DNA from: Escherichia phage JulesPiccard
Length of the DNA stretch: 47,731 nt
Reading direction: 5' to 3' (one strand)
Sequence record: MZ501087
The first letter of the stretch is position 1. Each line of letters opens with the position of its first letter. A program made the translations under genes and the position numbers. Shown piece after piece: positions 609 to 35,834 of this stretch. Under the pieces are notes generated by a model. That model was given only the letters and a program-made list of their open reading frames with translations, searched no databases and was not told the origin of the DNA.

Positions 609-2177
609 ATGGCTAATTTAGTATGGGAAGAAATGACCATTCAGGAAAAGATGGCCGTCAAGGCGATATCAGAACACAGCTTCGAGGGCTTTCTTCGTTG
701 CTGGTTCCAAATCACACAGGGCGAGCGATACATCCCTAACTGGCATCACAAATATCTATGCAGAATCATTGACGAGATTATTGCAGGTGAGCGCAAGGAC
801 ACCATCATCAACATAGCGCCGGGCAGCGGAAAGACAGAAATAGCTTCAATTCACTTTCCTGCCTACTCTATGGTTAAGCTGAAGAAGGTGCGGAACCTTA
901 ATATCTCCTTTGCCGACTCATTGGTTAAGCGTAACTCCAAGCGCGTACGTGACCTTATCAAATCTCAAGAATTTCAATCACTCTGGCCATGCAAGTTTGG
1001 TACGTGCAAAGACGATGAGCTTCAGGTTCTTGACGAGAGTGGCAAGGTTAGATTTGAGTCAATATCAAAGGCGGCTGGAGGTCAGATTACAGGCGCTCGA
1101 GGTGGCTATATAACAGAAACATACAGCGGGGCAGTTCTATTAGATGATTTCGACAAGCCGGCCGACATGCTATCTCAGGTCTACCGAACTAACAATCACG
1201 TAATGCTTAAGAACACGATTCGCTCACGTCGAGCTAGTTCTGTAAAAGGCAAGGCGACACCAATCATTTCGATACAGCAGCGATTGCACGTCAATGACTC
1301 AACCTGGTTCATGATGGAAGGAGGGATGGGTATTGATTTCGATCTGATTAAGATACCAGCATTAGTTACTGAGGATTACATCGATTCACTTCCTGACTGG
1401 ATTAAAGAGCAGTTTGCGGAAGACGTTTTGAGTGGTGAGTACATTGAGCGAGATGGGGTAAAGTACTATAGCTACTTCCCTAAAAAGGAATCCGTGCACG
1501 ACCTAGTTGCGATGTGGGATAGTGACCCGTACACTTTCCTTAGCCAGTATCAACAGGAACCTGTAGCTCTCGGCGGCAATCTGATTAACGTGGATTGGTT
1601 CCAGCGCCTTAGTGACACATTCAGACCTCCAGCTAAGTATGATTATCGATTCATCACGGCTGATACGGCGATGACAACTAAAAGCTATAGTGACTTCTCT
1701 GTGTTGCAACTTTGGGGCTATAAGGATGCCAGGATTTACCTTCTTGACCAACGCAGAGGCAAATGGGAGGCACCAGAGTTACAGGCTGAATTGCTTGAGT
1801 TTGAGAAGTCCGCAAGGGCCACCAGTCAGCAAAATGGAATTCTTCGAAAGATTATCGTCGAGAAGAAAGCATCTGGTATCGGTCTTATTCAATCAGCAAG
1901 TCGAGTTATGCGAACGCCAGTCGAGCCATACGTTCCGGATAACGACAAGCTGACCAGGGTAATGAGTGCGCTACCGCAGATTAAGGCCGGTAACGTCGTT
2001 CTTCCAGGGTCAGCGACATGGCTAAATGGTTTGCTTACGGAGATTGCATCTTTCACAGCAGACGACTCACACAAGCATGACGACCAAATTGACTGCCTAA
2101 CAATGGCAATCAACCTGGTACTTAACATTGCAGATGACCCTAAATCGCGGATGTTACGCCTTGCAGGAATTAAATAG
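609..2177 (+). CDS. terL: terminase large subunit
   Basis: 522 aa; N-terminal P-loop-like APGSGKTE; size and position before portal; C-terminal acidic nuclease-like region. Confidence 0.8.
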   Translation: MANLVWEEMTIQEKMAVKAISEHSFEGFLRCWFQITQGERYIPNWHHKYLCRIIDEIIAGERKDTIINIAPGSGKTEIASIHFPAYSMVKLKKVRNLNISFADSLVKRNSKRVRDLIKSQEFQSLWPCKFGTCKDDELQVLDESGKVRFESISKAAGGQITGARGGYITETYSGAVLLDDFDKPADMLSQVYRTNNHVMLKNTIRSRRASSVKGKATPIISIQQRLHVNDSTWFMMEGGMGIDFDLIKIPALVTEDYIDSLPDWIKEQFAEDVLSGEYIERDGVKYYSYFPKKESVHDLVAMWDSDPYTFLSQYQQEPVALGGNLINVDWFQRLSDTFRPPAKYDYRFITADTAMTTKSYSDFSVLQLWGYKDARIYLLDQRRGKWEAPELQAELLEFEKSARATSQQNGILRKIIVEKKASGIGLIQSASRVMRTPVEPYVPDNDKLTRVMSALPQIKAGNVVLPGSATWLNGLLTEIASFTADDSHKHDDQIDCLTMAINLVLNIADDPKSRMLRLAGIK

Positions 2178-2217
2178 CACGAATTGCCAAACACAAAAGC
2201 CACGGATGGCGTATAGT
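2175..2217 (+). promoter_or_regulatory. conserved promoter/operator element (TAGCA-N5-TGCCA ... TATAGT)
   Basis: family motif; TAG is terL stop. Confidence 0.55.
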
Positions 2218-2247
2218 CACTTCACACAAACGAGAGGAGTTAAACAA

Positions 2248-2625
2248 ATGACAAACACTTCAAAGGCTGTATATATTGGGAACAATGATGACAAGTATTG
2301 TGGATTCACTCCGGGAAATGAATACGACGTTTGCGTTCTTGATGATGGATTTTTGGGGGTTTACGATGATGATGATATTCACCGTTGCATTAAAAACGGA
2401 ACGTTACACGAGTTCAAGCTCGATTGTGAGGATGGTCATTTTGTAACTGAGACTGAGTGCGAAGTCATGCCGCCTATCGACAATAAAAAGCCAGAGCTTA
2501 GATATTACATAAATGGTCATGAGGTTGACATGGTTGAGTTCGGAAATGTGCGCTATACTGTAGAGCAGCTTAATGAGGATGGCGTAAAATGCGACACAAT
2601 CAAGTTCGAAGTAAAATTCGAGTAA
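2248..2625 (+). CDS. hypothetical protein, cargo gene (paralog of 14371..14745)
   Basis: ATG 2248 after RBS GAGAGGAG; preceded by promoter element at 2175 and followed by terminator; C-terminus IKFEVKFE matches IDFEVSFE of 14371..14745. Confidence 0.6.
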   Translation: MTNTSKAVYIGNNDDKYCGFTPGNEYDVCVLDDGFLGVYDDDDIHRCIKNGTLHEFKLDCEDGHFVTETECEVMPPIDNKKPELRYYINGHEVDMVEFGNVRYTVEQLNEDGVKCDTIKFEVKFE

Positions 2626-2646
2626 CCACAAAAGCTGTGATAAACT

Positions 2647-2669
2647 AGCCCCTGTTATGGGGCTTTTTA
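2647..2669 (+). terminator. intrinsic terminator
   Basis: hairpin GCCCC-TGTTAT-GGGGC then TTTTT. Confidence 0.7.
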
Positions 2670-2681
2670 TTGGAGAAAAAC

Positions 2682-3944
2682 ATGGTCAAGACAGACAGCT
2701 ACGCCAATATCTTTCTCGGCGGCAGTGATGGTAGTGAGATTTACGGGAGTTTGCAGAATCAGGCGCCCACAATTCTGGCCTCGCTTTATGCTGACAATGC
2801 TCTGGTGCGTCGAATTATCGACACAATACCGGAGACAGCATTAGCGGCAGGATTCCACATTGATGGTATTGATGATGAATCTGAATTCTGGTCTCACTGG
2901 GACGACCTGGAGCTAACAAAACACATCAATGAAGCCTGGTCATGGGCTAGATTGTTCGGTGGGTCTGCAATTGTTGCTATCGTTAAGGACAATAGGGCGC
3001 TAACAAGTCCGGTCAGAGAAGGTGCCGAGCTTGAAACGGTTCGCGTTTACGACCGCACACAAGTAAAAGTACAAACCCGAGAGGAGAACCCACGCAACTC
3101 GCGCTTTGGTAAGCCGCTAACCTATCGCATCACAACAAACGAAAGCGATATGTTCTATGATGTGCATTACACCCGCATTCACATCATTGACGGAGAGCGA
3201 GTCCCTAACGTAATGCGCCGTCAGAATGATGGATGGGGTAGAAGTGTTCTTTCTAGTGATATTCTTGACTCAATCAAGGATTACACGAACTGTGAACGAC
3301 TTGCCACGCAATTACTGAAGCGTAAGCAGCAGGCGGTCTGGAAGGCGAAAGGGCTTGCTGAGTTGTGTGATGACAGCGAAGGATTTGGCGCGGCTCGATT
3401 ACGACTTGCTCAGGTTGATAACAATAGTGGCGTGGGTCAGGCAATTGGCATTGACGCAGAATCTGAAGAGTACAGTGTTCTAAACTCTGATATCGGCGGG
3501 ATTGATGCGTTTCTGGATAAGAAGTTTGACCGAATCGTTGCTCTGAGCGGCATTCATGAAATCATCCTGAAGAACAAGAACGTTGGCGGTGTATCTTCAA
3601 GCCAGAATACGGCGCTTGAGACATTCCACAAGCTGGTTGACCGCAAGCGTAATGCTGAGCTTCTGCCTATTCTTGAGTTCTTAATCCCGTTCATTGTTAA
3701 TGTAGAAGAATGGTCAGTAGAGTTTAATCCTTTAGCGCAGGAGTCGAGCAAGGATAAAGCAGAGATTCTGGAGAAGAACGTAAACAGCATTGCGGCACTA
3801 ATTGCAGCTGGCGCTATGGATACTAACGAGGCTCGTGATACACTACGAACTATCGCACCAGAGATTAAGATTGGTGATGGAAATATCGAACCTGAAGAAC
3901 CATCTAAGGAAGTAATCGCGACGACAGAGGAATCTAATGAATGA
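2682..3944 (+). CDS. portal protein
   Basis: 420 aa, downstream of terL; ATG 2682 after GGAGAAAAAC; acidic C-terminus; size and position typical. Confidence 0.7.
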   Translation: MVKTDSYANIFLGGSDGSEIYGSLQNQAPTILASLYADNALVRRIIDTIPETALAAGFHIDGIDDESEFWSHWDDLELTKHINEAWSWARLFGGSAIVAIVKDNRALTSPVREGAELETVRVYDRTQVKVQTREENPRNSRFGKPLTYRITTNESDMFYDVHYTRIHIIDGERVPNVMRRQNDGWGRSVLSSDILDSIKDYTNCERLATQLLKRKQQAVWKAKGLAELCDDSEGFGAARLRLAQVDNNSGVGQAIGIDAESEEYSVLNSDIGGIDAFLDKKFDRIVALSGIHEIILKNKNVGGVSSSQNTALETFHKLVDRKRNAELLPILEFLIPFIVNVEEWSVEFNPLAQESSKDKAEILEKNVNSIAALIAAGAMDTNEARDTLRTIAPEIKIGDGNIEPEEPSKEVIATTEESNE

Positions 3945-3977
3945 TGAATTTGATGGATTTTAGTGAGGAGAATTGGG

Positions 3978-5066
3978 ATGTATAAAGTCCGCTATGACAG
4001 CGCAAAGTTTAAGGCAACAATCGACGAGAATGGATTCTTAGTCGATACGCCTGTGGTAGCGCGCCTCGGCGTGCAAGTCTACTACATGGAGGATGGTCGC
4101 ACGGTTCGAGAGTTTCGCCCAGCAGAGGAAGTTTTCAAGGATGAATCCCTCGCAAGCTACCAGGGTAAGCCAATGACCCTGGATCACGTCTTCGTTAACT
4201 CTGAGAACGCTAAAGAGGTGGTAGTAGGTTCAGTTTCTGGCAAAGCTGAACCTCTTGGCAGTTCAGTGGTTGCGCCAATCGTTATTTACGACAACGCAGC
4301 CATTCAGGAAGCTATGGCAGGTAACGCCAAGGAGTTGTCAGTCGGATACTCTGCAATTCTTGACGAAACCCCAGGATGGGGAGACCCTGCTACTGGCGAG
4401 TACATCCTTAAATCTGATGCTGATGAGAAATTCGATGCACCAGAAGGATGGCAGGAGTTCGACGCAATTCAGCGTGACATTAAAGTGAACCATCTCGCAA
4501 TGGTATATCGCGGTCGCGCAGGTATTGCCAAATTGAATATGGACGGTGAGCAGGAAAACCCGTATACTACTGACGTTGATATCAATAAAGAGGATAAACA
4601 GGAAATGATTAAGATTAAACTCGACGGCGCGCAGGAATTTGAGGTCGCACCGGAAGTCGCTTCTCACATCGAAGCGCTGAACGCAAAGGCTGATACCGCA
4701 ATCGCAGAGCGCGACGCACTGAAAGCTAAAGTAGACGCAATGCCTGCCGAAATCGAGGCTGCCGTAGCTAAAGCTAAAGCAGACGCTGAAGCACTAGCTG
4801 CCCTGGTTGCTGTTGCCGCTGAAGCTGGTGTGAAAGCTGACGGTCTGGATGCTAAAGGCATTAAAGTTGCTTACGTTAAAGAAGTCTCCGGCCTTGATGT
4901 TGCTGAGAAATCCGACGCGTACATCGACGCAGCGTTCGACATTGCCAAAGATTCTGATAAAATGGCTGAAGTACGTAAAGCAACTAACGCTTCCAACAAA
5001 TCTGACAGCGCCGATGAGCCTAAGAAATTAGACCCGCGTGCTCGTTTAGCTAAAATTAAGAAATAA
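3978..5066 (+). CDS. putative prohead protease / scaffolding protein
   Basis: RBS GAGGAG 7 nt before ATG 3978; C-terminal Ala/Glu/Lys-rich predicted coiled coil typical of scaffolds; between portal and capsid. Confidence 0.55.
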   Translation: MYKVRYDSAKFKATIDENGFLVDTPVVARLGVQVYYMEDGRTVREFRPAEEVFKDESLASYQGKPMTLDHVFVNSENAKEVVVGSVSGKAEPLGSSVVAPIVIYDNAAIQEAMAGNAKELSVGYSAILDETPGWGDPATGEYILKSDADEKFDAPEGWQEFDAIQRDIKVNHLAMVYRGRAGIAKLNMDGEQENPYTTDVDINKEDKQEMIKIKLDGAQEFEVAPEVASHIEALNAKADTAIAERDALKAKVDAMPAEIEAAVAKAKADAEALAALVAVAAEAGVKADGLDAKGIKVAYVKEVSGLDVAEKSDAYIDAAFDIAKDSDKMAEVRKATNASNKSDSADEPKKLDPRARLAKIKK

Positions 5067-5642: not shown

Positions 5643-5867
5643 ATGATAAAAATATTTTCTGGTGACTTCGAGTTCGCACATGAGGCTGATGCATTCCTTA
5701 ATGATGCAATTTCCTCAGGATTCAAATATCTAGTCAGGTCGCTGAGCAAATCACCAATGATTCAGGCCTATAGTCGCAGCGATACAACTCCAGGAAAAGG
5801 GGTTATAAGAAAGGATGGAGTGAGAGTTTTGGGAGTGGCCCTATCTGACGACCCTAGATGTGGATAA
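5643..5867 (+). CDS. hypothetical protein
   Basis: 74-aa ORF between terminators in head module. Confidence 0.35.
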   Translation: MIKIFSGDFEFAHEADAFLNDAISSGFKYLVRSLSKSPMIQAYSRSDTTPGKGVIRKDGVRVLGVALSDDPRCG

Positions 5868-5963
5868 CTGGTTGATGAATTTTCTGTTTTTAAGTCAGCG
5901 GAGTATGAGGAGTATACTCATGAGATTGATGGTGTATGGGTTAACTATATCCACAATGACTTC

Positions 5964-6185
5964 GTGAGTAAATTAAATGATGGTTGGAGAACGGTTACAG
6001 ACAGCGCATCCCCGCTAACCCACCACCCTCAGGTGTTGACGTGGTCATGGGAGTACAACTACTATTACACAAGATCATCATCAACTTATGGTATTTGCTT
6101 TTTAGCTAGGTTTGCAAATCATGATTCAACTAAAAAATCTGGCTGGGCCTTAGTTAAGTACGAAGAGGTAGAAGCGCCACAGTAA
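5964..6185 (+). CDS. hypothetical protein
   Basis: 73-aa ORF followed by terminator hairpin at 6190. Confidence 0.35.
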   Translation: MSKLNDGWRTVTDSASPLTHHPQVLTWSWEYNYYYTRSSSTYGICFLARFANHDSTKKSGWALVKYEEVEAPQ

Positions 6186-6189
6186 ATAA

Positions 6190-6209
6190 AGCCTCCTTCG
6201 GGAGGTTTT
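6190..6209 (+). terminator. intrinsic terminator
   Basis: CCTCC-TTCG-GGAGG then TTTT. Confidence 0.65.
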
Positions 6210-6285
6210 ACCGCCACCATTGCGTGGGCTAAAAACTCGTGTATAATGAACCCGTAGACACCTAACTGAAAAGGAACAATAAAGA

Positions 6286-7230
6286 ATGGCCATTAAATTT
6301 GATGCAGAACAAGCAAAAATCACCGCCCACCTCGAGCAAATGGGCGTAGATAAAGCAGATGCCGCTGGTATCTGGACCGTTAATCAGCTTACCGCTGCAC
6401 TGAATCGTGCTTACGAGAAAGAGTATGCAGAGAACTCTGTCGTTAATATCTTCCCTGTAACAAATGAAATCCCTGGTCACGCGAAGTATTTCGAATATCC
6501 AGAATTCGACGGTGTTGGTATCGCTCAGATTATCGCTGATTACTCTGACGACCTGCCTCTGGTTGACGCTTTCATGACTGAGAAGCAAGGTAAAGTATTC
6601 CGTTTCGGTAACGCATTCCTGATTTCTACTGATGAAATTAAAGCTGGCGCTGCAACTGGTCAGTCTCTGTCAACTCGCAAACAAGCGCTGGCATTCGAAG
6701 CGCACGACAACCTGTTGGACAAACTGGTTTGGTCTGGTTCCGCTCCGCACGGTATCGTAAGCGTATTCGATCAGCCGAACATCAACAACGTTGTTGCAAC
6801 TCCAAACTGGAGCGTCCCGCAGAACGCAATTGATGACGTAACCGCGATGATTGATGCAGTTGAATCTTCAACTCAGGGCTTACATCATGTGACTGACATT
6901 CTGCTTCCAGCCTCTGCTCGCCGAGTAATGCAGCAACTGGTTCCGCAGACAAACCTGAGTTACGGCGAATTGTTCACTCGTAACAACTCGGGCCTGACTA
7001 TTCGCTTCTTGCAGTTCCTGGATAACTACGATGGAGCGGGTGGTAAAGCTGCTCTGGCGTTTGAAAAGAGTCCACTCAATATGTCTATCGAGATTCCAGA
7101 AGCTACTAACGTTCTTCCTGGTCAACCGAAAGATTTGCACTTTAAGTACCCTGTAACATCTAAAGCGACAGGTTTGATTGTTTATCGCCCTCTGACGATG
7201 GCAGTAATCAAAGGCATTACCTTCGCGTAA
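6286..7230 (+). CDS. major capsid protein
   Basis: 314 aa, RBS AAAGGAAC, flanked by strong terminators (high-expression unit), position in head module. Confidence 0.65.
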   Translation: MAIKFDAEQAKITAHLEQMGVDKADAAGIWTVNQLTAALNRAYEKEYAENSVVNIFPVTNEIPGHAKYFEYPEFDGVGIAQIIADYSDDLPLVDAFMTEKQGKVFRFGNAFLISTDEIKAGAATGQSLSTRKQALAFEAHDNLLDKLVWSGSAPHGIVSVFDQPNINNVVATPNWSVPQNAIDDVTAMIDAVESSTQGLHHVTDILLPASARRVMQQLVPQTNLSYGELFTRNNSGLTIRFLQFLDNYDGAGGKAALAFEKSPLNMSIEIPEATNVLPGQPKDLHFKYPVTSKATGLIVYRPLTMAVIKGITFA

Positions 7231-7609: not shown

Positions 7610-8011
7610 ATGAATGATGCAATTTTGGCGTTTATGCGATCGCTTGTTCCTGCGCTTAAAGCGGTGGATGACGAATCAATTAATGTATGGATCGATTTGG
7701 CACGTCTCTACGTATGTGAGAGCAAGTTTGGCAATGATGCTGATCGCGCTGTGGGCCTTTATGCCTTGCACCTGATGCTTTCTGATGGCGCATTTAAGGG
7801 TGAGAATGAAGGCTTGGAAACATACAGTCGTAGAATGGCAAGTTATGCACTGAGCGGTGAGTTCTCTATCACTTATGATAATCAATCAGCAATCCAGGGT
7901 GACTTATCATCTTCCTCATGGGGTCGTATGTACAAGGCACTTCTCCGCAAGAAAGGTGGTGGCTTTGGTTTGATTACTTCCGCTCGTAGCGGTGGGTGCG
8001 GTTGCCGATGA
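7610..8011 (+). CDS. putative head-tail connector protein
   Basis: ATG 7610 after GGAG; position between capsid and tail genes. Confidence 0.45.
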   Translation: MNDAILAFMRSLVPALKAVDDESINVWIDLARLYVCESKFGNDADRAVGLYALHLMLSDGAFKGENEGLETYSRRMASYALSGEFSITYDNQSAIQGDLSSSSWGRMYKALLRKKGGGFGLITSARSGGCGCR

Positions 8012-8379
8012 ACTACAACGAAATAGAATCAATCACTCGTGCTGGCATTAACTTCTTTAGTGATGCCAGCGGCGTTTATGAAATGAGTACGGGAGCTGGA
8101 TATGTTGAAATCGTTAACGGCGTTGAGGTTGAGGTTCCTTCGCAAACATTTCAGCTAAAGGGCTTGGTGCGAGAAATCAAGACGCGAGATATCGATGGCG
8201 AGTTTATCCAGTTTGGCGATAAGCGCGGAATCTTCACGGCCCAGGTGGAAATCAAGCAGGGTTATCAGATTAAGGTTGATGGTGAGACTTTTGTTGTTGT
8301 TGACCCGCGCCCTGTTAAACCAACTGGCACGGTTGTTGGCTACCGTCCAATTCTTCGTAGGGTGGCTACTTATGGCTAG
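8008..8379 (+). CDS. putative head-tail joining protein
   Basis: ATGA overlap with upstream gene (translational coupling). Confidence 0.45.
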   Translation: MNYNEIESITRAGINFFSDASGVYEMSTGAGYVEIVNGVEVEVPSQTFQLKGLVREIKTRDIDGEFIQFGDKRGIFTAQVEIKQGYQIKVDGETFVVVDPRPVKPTGTVVGYRPILRRVATYG

Positions 8380-8809
8380 GAATATTGGAAGCGTGGTTAC
8401 GTTTGAAAAATCTATTGCTGACTGGATTGACAGAGCGGAGGATGGTTTTGGGATTGTGGTAGCCAATACGGTTATCAAGACAGCCAGCGCAATTGTTGAC
8501 CTTTCTCCTGTCGACACTGGTAGGTTTAAGGCTAACTGGCAAATCACCGCAAACTCGCCAGCCCAGCAGTCACTAAACGAGTACGACCAGACTGGCGGTC
8601 AGACAAAAACATACCTCGCCAGACAGGCGAGAGCGGTTGCCAACTCAAAAGCTACAAGTGTTATTTATATTACCAACCGACTTGACTACGCGGCTGATCT
8701 TGAGTACGGCGCATCAAACCAGGCTCCATCCGGTGTTTTAGGTGTGGTGCAAGCAAGGTTGGGTAGGTATTTTCAAGAGGCAGTGGAGGAGGCGCGTCGT
8801 GCAATATGA
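8372..8809 (+). CDS. putative neck/tail completion protein
   Basis: 145 aa, overlaps upstream stop; position in connector module. Confidence 0.45.
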   Translation: MARNIGSVVTFEKSIADWIDRAEDGFGIVVANTVIKTASAIVDLSPVDTGRFKANWQITANSPAQQSLNEYDQTGGQTKTYLARQARAVANSKATSVIYITNRLDYAADLEYGASNQAPSGVLGVVQARLGRYFQEAVEEARRAI

Positions 8810-9200
8810 ATTATCATTAGCAGCAAGGAAGTTCGTCAACGATTTGCTGGTAAGTGAATTTCCAGTCAGGTATCCAGTTGCTTGGGAGAATGCTGCATTT
8901 ACCCCTCCTGCAGACGGATCAATCTGGCTTAAGTACGACTACACAGAGGCAGACACCGTAACCTATGGGCTTAGCCGAAAGTGCAAATACTACGTAGGCA
9001 TGGTGCAGATTTCTGTTTTCTTCAGTCCTGGCACTGGAATTGATAAGCCGAGACAAATCGCTAATCAATTGGCAGAATCTATCGTTGATGGTACAATACT
9101 TGACAGCGGGACCATTTATGAGTCTGGAGTTGTTAACCCGGTTATCAAATCCAAGTCTGGGTGGTTTATCCCGGTTCGTTTTTATGTTCGTCTAGACTAA
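8799..9200 (+). CDS. putative tail terminator/minor tail protein (GTG start uncertain)
   Basis: RBS AGGAGG 6 nt before GTG 8799; alternative ATG 8742 lies inside upstream gene. Confidence 0.4.
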   Translation: MQYELSLAARKFVNDLLVSEFPVRYPVAWENAAFTPPADGSIWLKYDYTEADTVTYGLSRKCKYYVGMVQISVFFSPGTGIDKPRQIANQLAESIVDGTILDSGTIYESGVVNPVIKSKSGWFIPVRFYVRLD

Positions 9201-22238: not shown

Positions 22239-22277
22239 TTTGTACCCCTCATTAAGTTGTTTCGTTTCGATGGAGTA

Positions 22278-22320
22278 ATAGTATCGCATCCTTGCGAGCA
22301 GTGTTTAGCAATTCGTGCTA
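22278..22320 (-). promoter_or_regulatory. conserved promoter/operator element (drives lipoprotein operon)
   Basis: minus strand TAGCACGAATTGCTAAAC-N-TACTAT-TACTCCATCGAAACGAAAC. Confidence 0.55.
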
Positions 22321-28555: not shown

Positions 28556-28604
28556 TTTGTATATCCTTGTTTAGTTTATCTGCTTTCGATGTGTTAACTA
28601 TACC

Positions 28605-29090
28605 TCATCCATGAGATATGTCTTTAGCTTTTCGTGCTGCTTCGTTAGCAGCCTTAATTTTACGCCATGATCGACATTCTGGTTTGGTTGCTAACTCGGA
28701 TTCAGTAACCACACGCAGCATGTGACGCTTTTTGCAACGCAGCGTAAGAGGCTTTCCATTGCCGTCGAATTGCAGATCTGGTCGGCAGAATGTAGCGCGA
28801 AAACCTTCTCCGGTTCGTTTGTAGTAGTTGTGAGATAGCTGAGCGCCACGTGCAGAGATCATGCCACGCTTAAACCACTCTTCTACAGCCTGCGGCGTCA
28901 CCTTTAACTGCTTTGCGATATTCGCCTTTGTGCCGAAGAAATCAAGGAGCATCTCAAGCCGCGCGCGTAGCCCAGCCCTTACCTCATCTTTCAAAACGTA
29001 GTAACCTGAAGGTCGTTTCCGCTGCTTTTTATCTTCAGTGCGGATGGTTCCGTTATTGCCGTTAGTGGTTCGCTTATCAACTGCATTCAT
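28605..29090 (-). CDS. putative DNA-binding protein (HTH)
   Basis: basic 161-aa protein with HTH-like IAKQLKVTPQAVEEWFKRG; first gene of a divergent operon; palindromic operator in its upstream region. Confidence 0.45.
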   Translation of the reverse strand: MNAVDKRTTNGNNGTIRTEDKKQRKRPSGYYVLKDEVRAGLRARLEMLLDFFGTKANIAKQLKVTPQAVEEWFKRGMISARGAQLSHNYYKRTGEGFRATFCRPDLQFDGNGKPLTLRCKKRHMLRVVTESELATKPECRSWRKIKAANEAARKAKDISHG

Positions 29091-29191: not shown

Positions 29192-31186
29192 ATGTTGCCT
29201 ATCGAGAAGCTGGTTGCCAACTTTGATAAAGAGAGAATTAAACAGATTCAGAAAGATTACCAGTTTGGCGAGATAACACCTTACGAGTTCCAGTGCGTTA
29301 CATTTGATGCAATTGGGAAAGCCATTGGCAAGTATGAGGCTCCATTTATCGCAGACCTTTCCGTGTCTGCGGGCAAGACAATAATTCTGGCTATGATTGG
29401 TAAGCGCATGGAGCAATTGGGGTTGCCTTATATGGTGCTCTCTCGCCAGTCAGAGATAATCAGCCAGAACTCAGAAGAGCTTCGCAACTTCGGCATCCGT
29501 AACAGCGTCTATTGCGCTGGTCTTAACGTTAAATCAGTTTACTACCCAACCATAGTTGCTAGTGAGGGTACGGCAGCCAACGGCTTGTTTAAGGGGCTTG
29601 GTGATTATGTTCCGGCAGTTATCGCTATCGATGAATGCCACATGGTCGATCACATGGATATCGTGGAAGCTGAAGAGAACGAAGAAACATTTGAGCAAAT
29701 GAGCACAAAGAAAGGTGAGATGGTATTCAAGGATGGCGTTAACACTGGTTTGATTGGTACAGGTCGCGCACAATACACGCTAATAATTACCGAAATGAAA
29801 CGTCGTTGCCGTGAGAAATACGGGCGGGAGCTTCGCATCTTTGGCCTTACTGGCAGCCCATATCGTAACAACGATCATATCGTCGTTAGTAATCCAAACA
29901 TCCGTGGTTTCTGGCGCAAGACGGTAATACAAGTACCAACCAATTACCTTGTTGATTTGGGGTTCGTTGTGCCAACTGTTTACGGTGAGGTTGGCGATTT
30001 GGGTTACGATCTTAGTGAGTTTGCGCCAGATGGAAGTGACGGAATTAAGGATTTTAGCAAAAAAGAAATGGATGCGATGGAGGAGAAAATCCACCAAAAC
30101 CAATCAATGACTCAAAAGATTATGCAATTTGCCGCAAAGTTCATGGAGACTCGCAACGCAGCGCTTGTGACATGCTCTGGTAAGCGTCACTGTGAAGAAG
30201 CGGCAGCGGCGCTTCCTGAGGGTGTGACCTGGGCTATAGTAACCGACTCTACAGGTGAGAAAAAGCGCCGTGAGATTCTGGCTGACGCTTCAGAAGGTAA
30301 GTATAAGTTCATCTTTCAGATTGGTTGCCTCACAACCGGAGTGAACGTCCCACCGTGGGATACATCAATCATTCTGCGCAAGGTTGGTAGCATCACGTTA
30401 CTTATTCAGCTTTTGGGTCGAGGCATGCGAATTCTTAAGAAGAAGCATAAAGAAATGGGCATGGTTAAGGACGACCACGTGGTTCTAGACTTCGCTGGAA
30501 CACTTGACGACATGGCAGAGTTGTACTTTGACCCAATCATAGAGGAGGTGCAGGACCAGAAGTTTAAATCATCACGCAAGGGAAACGATGAGCCGAGGGT
30601 TTGCCCGGCCTGCAGCTATGAGAACTCACCATTCGCTCGTCGATGCAATAACGTAATTGACGGGAGGCGTTGTGAACATTTTTTTAAATTTCGCTTATGT
30701 GAAGATATAGAGGACCACCAGACAAAAGTTACTGTTAAGAAAGGTTGTGGTGAGAAGAATGATATTGCCGCTAAAAACTGCCGCTGCTGCGGAGAAATGC
30801 TTATTGACCCTAACGCAAAGTTGTCTGGAAAGATGTATCGAAAAGGTGACTGGTTGAGAGTTTACGGATTCAGTATTGGGTTAACTAAAAACCAAGCCGG
30901 AATCGTTGCTCGCTATGAAATAATGGCTCACAGCGGGGATAGGTTTGTTGCTTACGAAACTTTCTTCCCAGAGAGTGACCATCGCGTTTGTTCCGTTAAG
31001 TGGAAGGCATTTTGCCAGGCGCACATCCAGAACAAAACAGAAGCATTTCGCATCGGAAGACTTCGAAACGCCAAAATGATTATGACTAACGCAATTCAAT
31101 TTCGTGAGCCAATGCGAGTGACTCATAGAAAGAACCAGAAGGGGCAGGACATTATTGCAAACAAATCTTTTACTATGGATGATTGA
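29192..31186 (+). CDS. superfamily-2 DNA helicase
   Basis: Walker A SVSAGKT, DECH box (IAIDECHMV), C-terminal Cys-rich zinc-ribbon-like region. Confidence 0.75.
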   Translation: MLPIEKLVANFDKERIKQIQKDYQFGEITPYEFQCVTFDAIGKAIGKYEAPFIADLSVSAGKTIILAMIGKRMEQLGLPYMVLSRQSEIISQNSEELRNFGIRNSVYCAGLNVKSVYYPTIVASEGTAANGLFKGLGDYVPAVIAIDECHMVDHMDIVEAEENEETFEQMSTKKGEMVFKDGVNTGLIGTGRAQYTLIITEMKRRCREKYGRELRIFGLTGSPYRNNDHIVVSNPNIRGFWRKTVIQVPTNYLVDLGFVVPTVYGEVGDLGYDLSEFAPDGSDGIKDFSKKEMDAMEEKIHQNQSMTQKIMQFAAKFMETRNAALVTCSGKRHCEEAAAALPEGVTWAIVTDSTGEKKRREILADASEGKYKFIFQIGCLTTGVNVPPWDTSIILRKVGSITLLIQLLGRGMRILKKKHKEMGMVKDDHVVLDFAGTLDDMAELYFDPIIEEVQDQKFKSSRKGNDEPRVCPACSYENSPFARRCNNVIDGRRCEHFFKFRLCEDIEDHQTKVTVKKGCGEKNDIAAKNCRCCGEMLIDPNAKLSGKMYRKGDWLRVYGFSIGLTKNQAGIVARYEIMAHSGDRFVAYETFFPESDHRVCSVKWKAFCQAHIQNKTEAFRIGRLRNAKMIMTNAIQFREPMRVTHRKNQKGQDIIANKSFTMDD

Positions 31187-31187
31187 T

Positions 31188-31607
31188 ATGAATATTACAG
31201 ACAAAGTTGATTACATTGAGTTTTACCCGGGCCCGGTTAAGTCATGCCCCAAAGAGGACGACGAACAGATCTTTTGCTCTGATTGGGTTAAGTACCATTA
31301 TCCTCAGATTATCTATTGGCATACCGTTAATGAGGGGAAGAAATCAATGTGCGCAGCCAGAAAGGATGCAGCAAAAGGCCTCCTTAAAGGCGTATCAGAC
31401 TGCCTATTTCTAATACCTGAACCATTGCGAGGAAGGTATCCATTTGGCGCAATAGAGCTAAAGAGGGCAGGGAAAACGCAGGCTAGTCCAGTCAGCGAAG
31501 ATCAGAAGGCATTCCTGAAGAGCGTAAGAGAATCAGGCGGCTTCTCGGCTGTGGCCTACGGTCGTGAAGGTTTTCTTGCGGCGTTCAGAGAAATGATTTC
31601 AAAATAG
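31188..31607 (+). CDS. VRR-NUC domain nuclease
   Basis: GVSDCLFLIP..GAIELKR (D..ELK nuclease motif); 1-nt gap after helicase stop. Confidence 0.6.
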   Translation: MNITDKVDYIEFYPGPVKSCPKEDDEQIFCSDWVKYHYPQIIYWHTVNEGKKSMCAARKDAAKGLLKGVSDCLFLIPEPLRGRYPFGAIELKRAGKTQASPVSEDQKAFLKSVRESGGFSAVAYGREGFLAAFREMISK

Positions 31608-31647
31608 CACTAATTGCTAAAGAGATTTCGCAGGGATGCGATATAGT
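31605..31647 (+). promoter_or_regulatory. conserved promoter/operator element
   Basis: TAGCACTAATTGCTAAAG-N-TATAGT-TACTCCATCGAAACGAAAC. Confidence 0.55.
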
Positions 31648-31683
31648 TACTCCATCGAAACGAAACACAGAGAGAGAAACAAA

Positions 31684-32448: not shown

Positions 32449-32488
32449 CATTTTTTGTTAAAACTAAAATCCAGGGATGGATTATATT
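32446..32488 (+). promoter_or_regulatory. conserved promoter/operator element
   Basis: TAGCATTTTTTGTTAAA ... TATATT. Confidence 0.5.
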
Positions 32489-32518
32489 AAACACATCAAC
32501 AACGGAGAGGATTAAGAG

Positions 32519-33143: not shown

Positions 33144-33226
33144 CGAGCCTAATACTAGTAGCATCGTTACCACTGTTTAGCTTTACTATCTTATACTTTA
33201 TCGCAATGAATTAAGGAACTTATATA

Positions 33227-34357
33227 ATGGCAACTGCAAAAATTACCAACGAAGAACTGCGCGAAGAACTGGCTAATGGCATGACCAACAAAGCTATCGC
33301 AGAGAAGTACGGAATGAATATTCGCAATGTCGAATTGCGTCGTAGTAAATTAGCTAAGAGTGGAGAGTTGCACGGAAACCCAGGTATCAAGAAGTTAGTT
33401 CCTGACGGTTATTTGGTCAAAGGTACGTCAACCATGATTGATGCGGATGGCAACGAGAAGATTCGCTGGGTTAAGACCTCAATTGATAATGAGCGACTTG
33501 AGGTTTTAATGGAGCAAGCTCGAGAAGCATTCTGCTCTGATTTGCCAAAAGCAGATGCGGTAATCCACTCAGGTAATGAGGTCAACTCTGAGTTAATGAC
33601 TCTTTACCCTATTTTCGATATCCATATTGGCATGATGGCGCATCGCCATGAGTCCGGCGAAAATTATGACACGAACACCGCTGAGAAATTAATGGGATCA
33701 TATTTTGACCATGCAATTTCCGTATCACCAGCCTCAGAGAAAGCCGTGATTTTAGTTGGTGGTGATTTCCTTCACTCCGATGGGTTGGAATCGGTAACTC
33801 CAGCAAGCGGACACTGCCTTGATCAAGATAGTCGATATGCCAAGTTAGTTTATGTTGCTATTCGCTCGATTCGTTGCGCCGTAGAGAAGATGCTTAAGAA
33901 GCATAAGAATGTCGAGATTCAGATTATAGAGGGCAATCACGACCAGAGTGGTATGATTTGGCTCCGTGCGGCAATGGCTGCATTTTATGAAAACGAGAAT
34001 CGCGTGTTTGTTGATACCAGTCCGGCAATCATGCACAAGACGCGATTTGGCTCAACATTACTTGGTTACACTCACGGTCACACCATGAAGAAAGCCGAGG
34101 GTAGACTTGCAGCAATGGCTACCGACTACCGCAAAGACTTTGGTGAATGTGAGTTTGTTTACTGCCACTCCGGCCATTTCCATCACGCAACTGTTACAGA
34201 GTGCACTCTTGGGATTGACGAGGTTCACCCAGCGCTGGCTAGTAAGGATGCGTATGCAGCTCGAGGAGGGTGGCGCTCATATCGCCAAGCTGCCGCAATC
34301 ATCTATCACAAGGAGTTCGGTGAGGTTGGTAGGCATATTTATCGCCCAGGCATGTAA
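33227..34357 (+). CDS. calcineurin-like metallophosphoesterase with N-terminal HTH-like region
   Basis: motifs DIHIG, GGDFLHSDG, EGNHD, GYTHGH, HSGHFHH; N-terminal MTNKAIAEKYGMNIRNVELRRSK. Confidence 0.6.
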   Translation: MATAKITNEELREELANGMTNKAIAEKYGMNIRNVELRRSKLAKSGELHGNPGIKKLVPDGYLVKGTSTMIDADGNEKIRWVKTSIDNERLEVLMEQAREAFCSDLPKADAVIHSGNEVNSELMTLYPIFDIHIGMMAHRHESGENYDTNTAEKLMGSYFDHAISVSPASEKAVILVGGDFLHSDGLESVTPASGHCLDQDSRYAKLVYVAIRSIRCAVEKMLKKHKNVEIQIIEGNHDQSGMIWLRAAMAAFYENENRVFVDTSPAIMHKTRFGSTLLGYTHGHTMKKAEGRLAAMATDYRKDFGECEFVYCHSGHFHHATVTECTLGIDEVHPALASKDAYAARGGWRSYRQAAAIIYHKEFGEVGRHIYRPGM

Positions 34358-34358
34358 G

Positions 34359-34401
34359 TAGCACTTTTTGCCTAAAGGATGCCGTAGAAATACGGCATAA
34401 T
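34359..34401 (+). promoter_or_regulatory. conserved promoter/operator element
   Basis: TAGCACTTTTTGCCTAAA ... CATAAT ... AAATCGAAACGAGATG. Confidence 0.5.
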
Positions 34402-34442
34402 CACCAAATCGAAACGAGATGAACTAAACCAGGAAACACAAA

Positions 34443-34619
34443 ATGACTAAGATGATTTATTGCACCAAGAACAACTCCAAGACTCTGCCGTTTACTGTCA
34501 ACCAGCCGTACAATGCGGAGTACCAGGGTGATGGATATTTCAAGATTTACGGCGATGACATGACGTGGATTTTAGCGCCGATTGATGGTTCGCTGGTTGA
34601 ATTTATTATCGCTGACTAG
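34443..34619 (+). CDS. hypothetical protein (58 aa)
   Basis: ATG after conserved leader; promoter element 34359; terminator follows. Confidence 0.35.
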   Translation: MTKMIYCTKNNSKTLPFTVNQPYNAEYQGDGYFKIYGDDMTWILAPIDGSLVEFIIAD

Positions 34620-34644: not shown

Positions 34645-34670
34645 CGGGGGGGCTTTTGGCTCCCTTTTTT
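34645..34670 (+). terminator. intrinsic terminator before lysis cassette
   Basis: G-rich hairpin then TTTTTTT. Confidence 0.5.
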
Positions 34671-35451: not shown

Positions 35452-35816
35452 TAATGTGCGTAGCTTTGTCTGGATGTTCAGCAACTGATGCACTGACCGG
35501 ATTGATTGGCAGCAAGCCGGAGGTTACAGCTCAGGCCGGGGCAGAGAATAACAAGGTTGGAGTTGGGTTAACGAATAAGGTCGACTCTAGTAACTCCAGT
35601 GATGCCACTGTTAAGGATTCCAGCGTAGGCTCTCTGGATAGCTCGAGTGGGAAAAAGACTGCTGACAATTCGATTAAGGCCTCAACAATTACCGCCGAAA
35701 AGATTGAAATTACCAATAACGAATCATCCGCGCTTCCGTGGGTTGGAACAGGAGCAATGGGTTTGTTGGTTTTAATTCTCATGGCATTAATCTTAAGACG
35801 TAAAAAAGCCTCCTAA
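35427..35816 (+). CDS. unimolecular spanin (u-spanin)
   Basis: N-terminal lipoprotein signal with lipobox LSGCS plus C-terminal TMD followed by RRKK; start embedded in end of endolysin gene. Confidence 0.65.
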   Translation: MFKWIAALVMCVALSGCSATDALTGLIGSKPEVTAQAGAENNKVGVGLTNKVDSSNSSDATVKDSSVGSLDSSSGKKTADNSIKASTITAEKIEITNNESSALPWVGTGAMGLLVLILMALILRRKKAS

Positions 35817-35834
35817 TGGAGGCTATATTTTTAT
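35801..35834. terminator. bidirectional terminator (lysis cassette / minus operon)
   Basis: AAAAA-GCCTCC-TAAT-GGAGGC-TATATTTTTA. Confidence 0.7.

Follow-up and report, generated by a model that had tools for sequence, protein, structure and literature searches.

A helix-turn-helix metallophosphoesterase gene of Escherichia phage JulesPiccard belongs to a widespread phage family with a possible role in DNA metabolism

The bas03_0050 locus

The window analyzed here is the whole 47,731-nucleotide stretch of record MZ501087, from Escherichia phage JulesPiccard. This phage is Bas03 of the BASEL collection, a Braunvirinae-like member of the Drexlerviridae, and its nearest genomes are those of T1/Rtp-like coliphages at ~85–89% nucleotide identity. 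Its plus strand carries a complete gene preceded by a Shine-Dalgarno sequence (Table 1), and the 376-residue reading frame claimed for this position in an earlier note, from ATG through the stop codon, is exact. The encoded protein is 100% identical to the database entry bas03_0050, labeled 'hypothetical protein bas03_0050'. Database identity, a full-length match to the phage family phrog_704 and the presence of tblastn homologues in other phages together indicate that bas03_0050 is a real gene rather than a chance open reading frame. Two records assigned to other hosts, Campylobacter phage A110b (MG065688.1) and Pseudomonas phage PsgS01F (PP134917.1), share ~88% nucleotide identity across the gene. 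A110b resembles JulesPiccard also over 24 kb, and the 44,679 bp PsgS01F record is equal in length to an E. coli phage record that gave the same match statistics; both host assignments look doubtful and may stem from contaminating coliphages.

The gene lies in a rightward block containing a phrog_16 helicase (29192–31186), a VRR-NUC-like ORF (31188–31607), several small ORFs and then bas03_0050 itself. The longest reading of the VRR-NUC-like ORF (31155–31607, plus strand) starts from a TTG overlapping the 3' end of the helicase gene, and the ATG at 31188 is the likelier start. This ORF matches phrog_824, and the genes at the same position in related phages carry VRR-NUC nuclease annotations. 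On the 3' side of bas03_0050 are a 58-residue ORF (34443–34619, phrog_4788), a hairpin and then a holin-endolysin-spanin cassette. Gene order around bas03_0050 is conserved across the Drexlerviridae subfamilies.

A search near bas03_0050 for sites that a helix-turn-helix (HTH) protein might recognize yielded no convincing palindrome. It did reveal a repeated promoter-like element, without a link to bas03_0050, in which GGATGnGnTATAGTTAnnnCATCGAAA is followed ~25 nt later by ACAAAATG, placed at the start codon of the ORF downstream. Every copy is oriented with local transcription, and the element may represent a phage-specific promoter and leader. A weaker copy separates the bas03_0050 stop codon from the 58-residue ORF, so this small ORF may have its own promoter.

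Table 1. Coordinates of bas03_0050, its encoded modules and motifs, and nearby regulatory-like elements in the window
Feature	Position	Strand	Remarks
bas03_0050, complete gene	33227..34357	+	ATG start, 376 aa plus stop; order HTH, hairpin, helix, metallophosphoesterase
Shine-Dalgarno AAGGA	33213..33217	+	9 nt 5' of the ATG; read directly from the sequence
Three-helix HTH, residues 8–44 (helices 8–16, 21–28, 32–44)	33248..33358	+	LuxR/GerE/resolvase-like, basic, fast-diverging across the family
Beta-hairpin, residues 64–84	33416..33478	+	Conserved; G75 and W81 nearly invariant; present also in HTH-less homologues
Long helix, residues 86–103	33482..33535	+	Joins N-terminal module to catalytic core
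Metallophosphoesterase core, residues 120–376	33584..34354	+	Predicted alpha/beta sandwich, pLDDT mostly >90
Motif I, DIHIG, residues 131–135	33617..33631	+	D131, H133 invariant; DxHxG form as in Mre11/SbcD
Motif II, GGDFLHSDG, residues 178–186	33758..33784	+	D180 invariant, H183 nearly; GDxLH form as in Mre11/SbcD
Family-specific insert HSDGLESVTPASGHCLDQDSR, residues 183–203	33773..33835	+	Best conserved family segment; pattern HxD...TPxSGHxLDxDxR
Motif III, EGNHD, residues 235–239	33929..33943	+	N237, H238 invariant
Motif IV, GYTHGH, residues 280–285	34064..34081	+	H283 invariant
Motif V, HSGHFHH, residues 314–320	34166..34186	+	G316, H319 invariant; H317 nearly
Promoter-like element, strong copies	22265-22291, 28584-28610, 31634-31660	-, -, +	3 copies vs 0.01 expected by chance
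Promoter-like element, weaker copies	32472-32506, 34394-34446	+, +	
Terminator-like hairpin	34646-34666	+	Strong, 9-bp stem, T-run; directly after the 58-residue ORF
Bidirectional terminator-like hairpin	35807-35824	both	After the spanin gene, where convergent leftward genes begin

An N-terminal HTH module and a metallophosphoesterase core

The predicted structure of bas03_0050 contains two parts, an N-terminal module and a catalytic core. The AlphaFold2 model (mean pLDDT 83.8, pTM 0.71) was built from a 103-sequence alignment that spans drexlerviruses, jerseyviruses and roseophages and goes as low as 26% identity, and assigns the three HTH helices pLDDT values of 82–88. A separate model of residues 1–112 gives identical elements, namely the three helices, the hairpin and the long helix, and the predicted HTH fold superposes on LuxR/GerE-type HTH domains bound to DNA. 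The earlier note had read the string MTNKAIAEKYGMNIRNVELRRSK, at residues 19–41, as part of an HTH-like prefix of ~25 residues; structure prediction supports a genuine three-helix HTH fold, whereas the proposed size is too small, since the whole module spans ~120 residues. The Pfam GerE model scores 13.7 bits on bas03_0050 itself, under its gathering cut-off of 23.5. Among 120 family representatives, Pfam HTH models match at the equivalent position in many cases (HTH_1 in 24, HTH_8 in 22, HTH_50 in 13, Sigma70_r4_2 in 10 with a best E of 1.5e-9, and GerE in four with a best E of 2.4e-8), and such matches recur in representatives of six divergent clades. The HTH family that is matched differs from relative to relative, and the subtype is therefore not fixed.

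The HTH segment is occupied in 96% of family representatives and is the fastest-changing of the compared parts: median identity to the window protein is 16% for the HTH, 39% for the core, 48% for the hairpin and 57% for the insert at residues 183–203. The charge of the segment is nonetheless conserved, with a median net value of +5 from the second through the third helix, positive in 96% of 144 representatives, against a median of −5 for the core. This pattern fits a nucleic-acid-binding module, and the HTH of bas03_0050 may bind DNA. The hairpin and long helix belong with the catalytic domain, since a 317-residue Campylobacter phage homologue that lacks the HTH aligns from residue 66 of the query. 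Megablast matches to other phages are mosaic. Rtp, ACG-M12, IME253 and relatives share only nucleotides 1–323 of the gene (residues 1–108; 33227–33549 in the window) at 87–90% identity, and ESCO41, P818 and others share only nucleotides 172/193–1131 (33398–34357). Thus, the N-terminal and catalytic modules recombine independently among drexlerviruses.

All five motif strings that had been quoted as a full calcineurin-like set are present at the expected places. Together with the predicted alpha/beta sandwich they give the protein the characters of the metallophosphoesterase (MPE) superfamily, which are the motifs DxH, GDxx[D/H], GNH[D/E], H and GHxH on this fold. Alignments of 103, 147 and 120 sequences, reaching ~26–31% identity, show the metal-ligand residues intact: D131, H133, D180, N237, H238, H283, G316 and H319 are invariant, and H317, H183, G236 and D239 nearly so. 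The Pfam scores fall below the gathering thresholds (Metallophos_2, PF12850, 19.8 bits against 27; Metallophos, PF00149, 15.7 against 21.5). The family is thus too divergent for these models, which explains the 'hypothetical protein' labels. The insert is modeled at moderate pLDDT (66–76). No equivalent of it was identified in Mre11, SbcD or DP1, and it may form an extra substrate or metal site.

Several comparisons bear on the kind of MPE that this core represents. First, in the family profile, motifs I–II (tDlHlGm, lGDflHyd) align to those of Thermotoga maritima Mre11/SbcD (sDwHLG, tGDlLHs). Second, the folds of DP1, SbcD and Mre11 rank above those of Pnkp and lambda-type phosphatases. Third, distant phage relatives of ~400 residues in a viral structure library are often automatically annotated as 'DNA polymerase II small subunit' or SbcD. 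At the sequence level, matches to Mre11/SbcD are non-significant (E 0.2–0.7), the best of them (T. maritima, E = 0.2) covering motifs I–II only, and no SbcD or Mre11 model in Pfam or NCBIfam matches bas03_0050. The core therefore resembles the nuclease branch of MPEs yet falls outside Mre11/SbcD as these models delimit it, so that of the two affinities weighed earlier, Mre11/SbcD-like or protein-phosphatase-like, the former is favored by the predicted fold but not by any significant sequence match. A Ser/Thr/Tyr protein phosphatase similar to the lambda enzyme NinI is highly improbable: one Xanthomonas homologue is recorded as 'protein phosphatase (phage lambda like)' and occupies a nin-region-like position beside Q, but bas03_0050 has neither the PPP signatures GDxVDRG and GNHE nor a close PPP fold of the lambda phosphatase/NinI type.

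Family, genomic contexts and alternative roles

The fusion of an HTH to a phosphoesterase, which the earlier note considered unusual, turned out to be the canonical form of a very large phage family. Residues 4–376 match positions 2–388 of the 390-position phrog_704 profile ('DNA repair exonuclease') at E = 6.9e-151, and phrog_704 members have the same domain order, motifs and length, with no structural difference from bas03_0050. The family extends through Drexlerviridae, Jerseyvirus, Dhillonvirus, roseophages and others. Homologues were found by tblastn in 2,017 phage records, with at least 80% of the protein covered in 1,942, and among 1.84 billion cluster representatives (clusters at 50% identity), searched exhaustively, 4,722 clusters matched at E ≤1e-3 and 1,064 at ≤1e-30. 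Nearly all of the 150 matches listed in the cluster search are 370–420 residues long. Relatives already carry annotations such as 'HTH-type regulator/nuclease SbcD' and 'winged helix-turn-helix domain-containing protein / metallophosphoesterase'. bas03_0050 is thus an ordinary member, with an architecture that public databases already list and annotate, and the HTH-MPE design, common to thousands of phages, is real but ordinary. The phrog_704 name derives from fold similarity; a full-text literature search returned genome announcements or papers on host defense MPEs, and no functional or experimental study of the phrog_704 HTH-MPE family.

The genomic contexts of homologues, surveyed in annotated records because an alignment-based locus search returned drexlerviruses only, are varied, with no universally linked partner gene among them. 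In weberviruses and Pantoea phage AAS23, a HAD-type 3'-phosphatase/polynucleotide kinase (PNK) and a P-loop (dNMP) kinase lie directly 3' of the HTH-MPE gene (Klebsiella phage Roth84, retrieved locus 5672–6738; AAS23, retrieved locus 7971–9058); the equivalent slot in JulesPiccard holds only the 58-residue ORF. An N4-like roseophage encodes its homologue between DNA polymerase A and primase. In Campylobacter phage F336 the 317-residue HTH-less homologue directly follows DNA ligase, near a Holliday-junction resolvase (retrieved locus 2654–4951), an arrangement that echoes the bacterial ligase-associated PdeM/MPE clusters, the source of the best, though weak, sequence matches. The early genes that surround the homologue of a Vibrio zobellvirus include ones for PIN-like, HAD and dual-specificity phosphatase proteins, and jerseyviruses carry their homologue in a small opposite-strand cassette within the tail genes. 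The homologue in Xanthomonas phage PBR31 directly follows the Q antiterminator, and those of Dhillonvirus and roseophage prophages stand at the end of the genome or prophage, after the lysis genes. DNA metabolism is the commonest theme among the neighbors, and the boundary with late genes is the second.

The PNK and kinase neighbors of some relatives raise the possibility of an end-healing or nucleotide phosphodiesterase, in which the MPE would remove 2',3'-cyclic or 3'-phosphate ends, or hydrolyze (cyclic) nucleotides, in concert with the downstream HAD phosphatase and P-loop kinase in nucleic-acid repair or nucleotide recycling. The phosphatase domain of bacterial Pnkp and gp66 of mycobacteriophage D29 offer parallels. 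However, the two genes are absent from the window and from most clades, and are thus not obligate partners. The lower rank of Pnkp and lambda-type folds also counts against such a role, as does the PdeM/'Nuclease MPE' model TIGR04123, which reaches 18.1 bits against a cut-off of 150 and over residues 218–254 only; the match to PDB 6nvo is similarly weak (E = 0.64). An enzyme of this type is therefore considered unlikely.

The second theme invites a different reading, that the protein is mainly a transcription regulator whose HTH acts on phage promoters or operators at the late-gene switch, with the MPE as a sensor or modulator in the manner of other HTH-enzyme fusions such as BirA and NadR. 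The late-gene boundary position recurs in several unrelated phages, as in PBR31 beside Q, and in Drexlerviridae, Dhillonvirus, Vibrio phages and roseophages the homologues have lysis or packaging genes next to them. Similarity links the HTH to regulatory HTHs of the sigma region 4, LuxR and Fis types, its fast divergence would be expected if it tracked lineage-specific DNA sites, and a conserved promoter-like element is repeated in the window. Against this, the catalytic residues are all invariant, which indicates an enzyme rather than a degenerate sensor, and HTH-less homologues retain the catalytic module, which points to an enzymatic core function. Moreover, drexlerviruses carry a separate predicted transcriptional regulator, and the search near the gene identified no binding site. 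A mainly regulatory protein is thus quite unlikely.

It is also conceivable that the enzyme serves in anti-defense by destroying nucleotide immune signals, such as cyclic oligonucleotides, m6-dAMP or similar molecules, although we regard this as very unlikely. Phages are known to encode phosphodiesterases against signaling defenses, MPE and HAD genes are paired in nucleotide-sensing or nucleotide-processing defense systems (Metis, PUA-Cal-HAD), and some relatives of bas03_0050 have an adjacent HAD phosphatase. Nevertheless, a small-molecule hydrolase would have little use for a conserved basic HTH, and the gene is a syntenic core gene rather than a variable accessory one. PADLOC models gave no match beyond a chance-level Cas6b, and the literature offered no support.

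Proposed function and comparison with known enzymes

The reading we favor, at a little short of an even chance, is that bas03_0050 encodes a nuclease of phage DNA metabolism, a stand-alone Mn2+-dependent DNA phosphodiesterase tethered by its HTH, for which degradation of host DNA is the leading candidate role. The protein would be a binuclear-metal phosphodiesterase, probably using Mn2+, whose Mre11/SbcD/DP1-like nuclease core acts on DNA without a Rad50/SbcC-type ATPase. Its own basic N-terminal HTH would bring the enzyme to DNA, and the conserved hairpin and helix would be built onto the catalytic domain. The gene belongs to the core set of T1-like phages and of numerous further siphoviruses and podoviruses, and would serve DNA metabolism in lytic growth. 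The likeliest role would be breakdown of host DNA, to supply nucleotides and shut down the host, and the next likeliest the processing of DNA ends or intermediates in replication and recombination. DNA as the substrate, DNA binding by the HTH and the biological role are inferences. An enzyme packaged in the virion and ejected with the DNA was considered and set aside: gp38 of phage AAS23, a bas03_0050 orthologue with 63% identity, was detected in virion LC-MS/MS by one peptide (2.67% coverage), a probable carry-over.

The interest of bas03_0050 lies not in any oddity of its sequence but in its being a widespread Drexlerviridae core gene, present in thousands of other phages, on which the literature search found no functional study. 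If an Mre11-like core works alone by means of its own HTH, this would extend what is known of MPE nuclease targeting. The Tunavirinae phage Bas12 is restricted by PUA-Cal-HAD, whose trigger is the m6-dAMP that arises when the phage induces breakdown of host DNA; this suggests that host DNA degradation occurs in at least some T1-like phages. A host-DNA-degrading enzyme of the T1 family, if identified, would tie into work on defense systems that sense genome degradation.

Comparison with cellular MPE nucleases reveals both shared and distinct features. Similar to bas03_0050, Mre11/SbcD enzymes (3qg5 and 2q8u from T. maritima, 7dog from Staphylococcus aureus, 6s6v from E. coli) have the DxHxG and GDxLH forms of motifs I and II. 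Unlike bas03_0050, they lack the N-terminal HTH, hairpin and helix and the insert at residues 183–203. Only 57 residues follow motif V in the AlphaFold2 model, so bas03_0050 has no C-terminal capping domain. No Rad50/SbcC-type ATPase was found among window ORFs of at least 150 residues, the scanned neighbors, or 73 of the 82 annotated features of RobRod40, the closest relative, for which the scan covered the retrieved 45 kb of the 47.6-kb genome. The archaeal PolD small subunit DP1 (5ihe), a 3'-5' proofreading exonuclease, is 13% identical to bas03_0050. DP1 acts within a polymerase together with DP2, and no DNA polymerase gene is annotated in the same 45 kb of RobRod40. The N-terminal addition of DP1 is an OB fold, whereas that of bas03_0050 is an HTH.

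Two phage systems set a precedent for the destruction of host DNA. The Cluster A MPE gp48 of mycobacteriophage A10ZJ24 has phosphodiesterase and DNase activities. It breaks down DNA both in vitro and in vivo, including that of the host, and productive infection of Mycobacterium tuberculosis depends on it (PMC12287305). Like bas03_0050, gp48 is a phage MPE with all five motifs, but its far smaller size, with motif I as early as residue 10, leaves no room for the HTH, hairpin and helix module. In phage T5, genetic evidence shows that host DNA degradation requires A1, which works jointly with the DNA-binding A2 (record annotation; bioRxiv 10.64898/2026.01.13.699316). The C-terminal half of A1, encoded at 1706–3376 on the minus strand of the retrieved T5 locus, contains MPE-like motifs (GDIH, SNHD, VHGH, GHTH) recognizable by eye only. 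A1 differs in its atypical motif II, its different 290-residue N-terminal region, its pre-early expression class and its further roles in DNA transfer. Homology between the bas03_0050 family and A1 was rejected, as hhalign gave a probability of 0.25% and Pfam searches were empty for both A1 and A2, and the comparison is kept as an analogy. As such, T5 A1 with its separate small DNA-binding A2 forms a split parallel to the fused HTH of bas03_0050. A bolder extension, which we hold to be doubtful, is that the HTH-MPE, whose fast-evolving HTH could additionally confer sequence or self/non-self selectivity, is the host-chromosome-degrading enzyme of T1-like phages, a one-polypeptide equivalent of T5 A1 plus A2 and a self-targeting Mre11-like nuclease without Rad50, and the source of the dNMP/m6-dAMP pool sensed by Metis and PUA-Cal-HAD.
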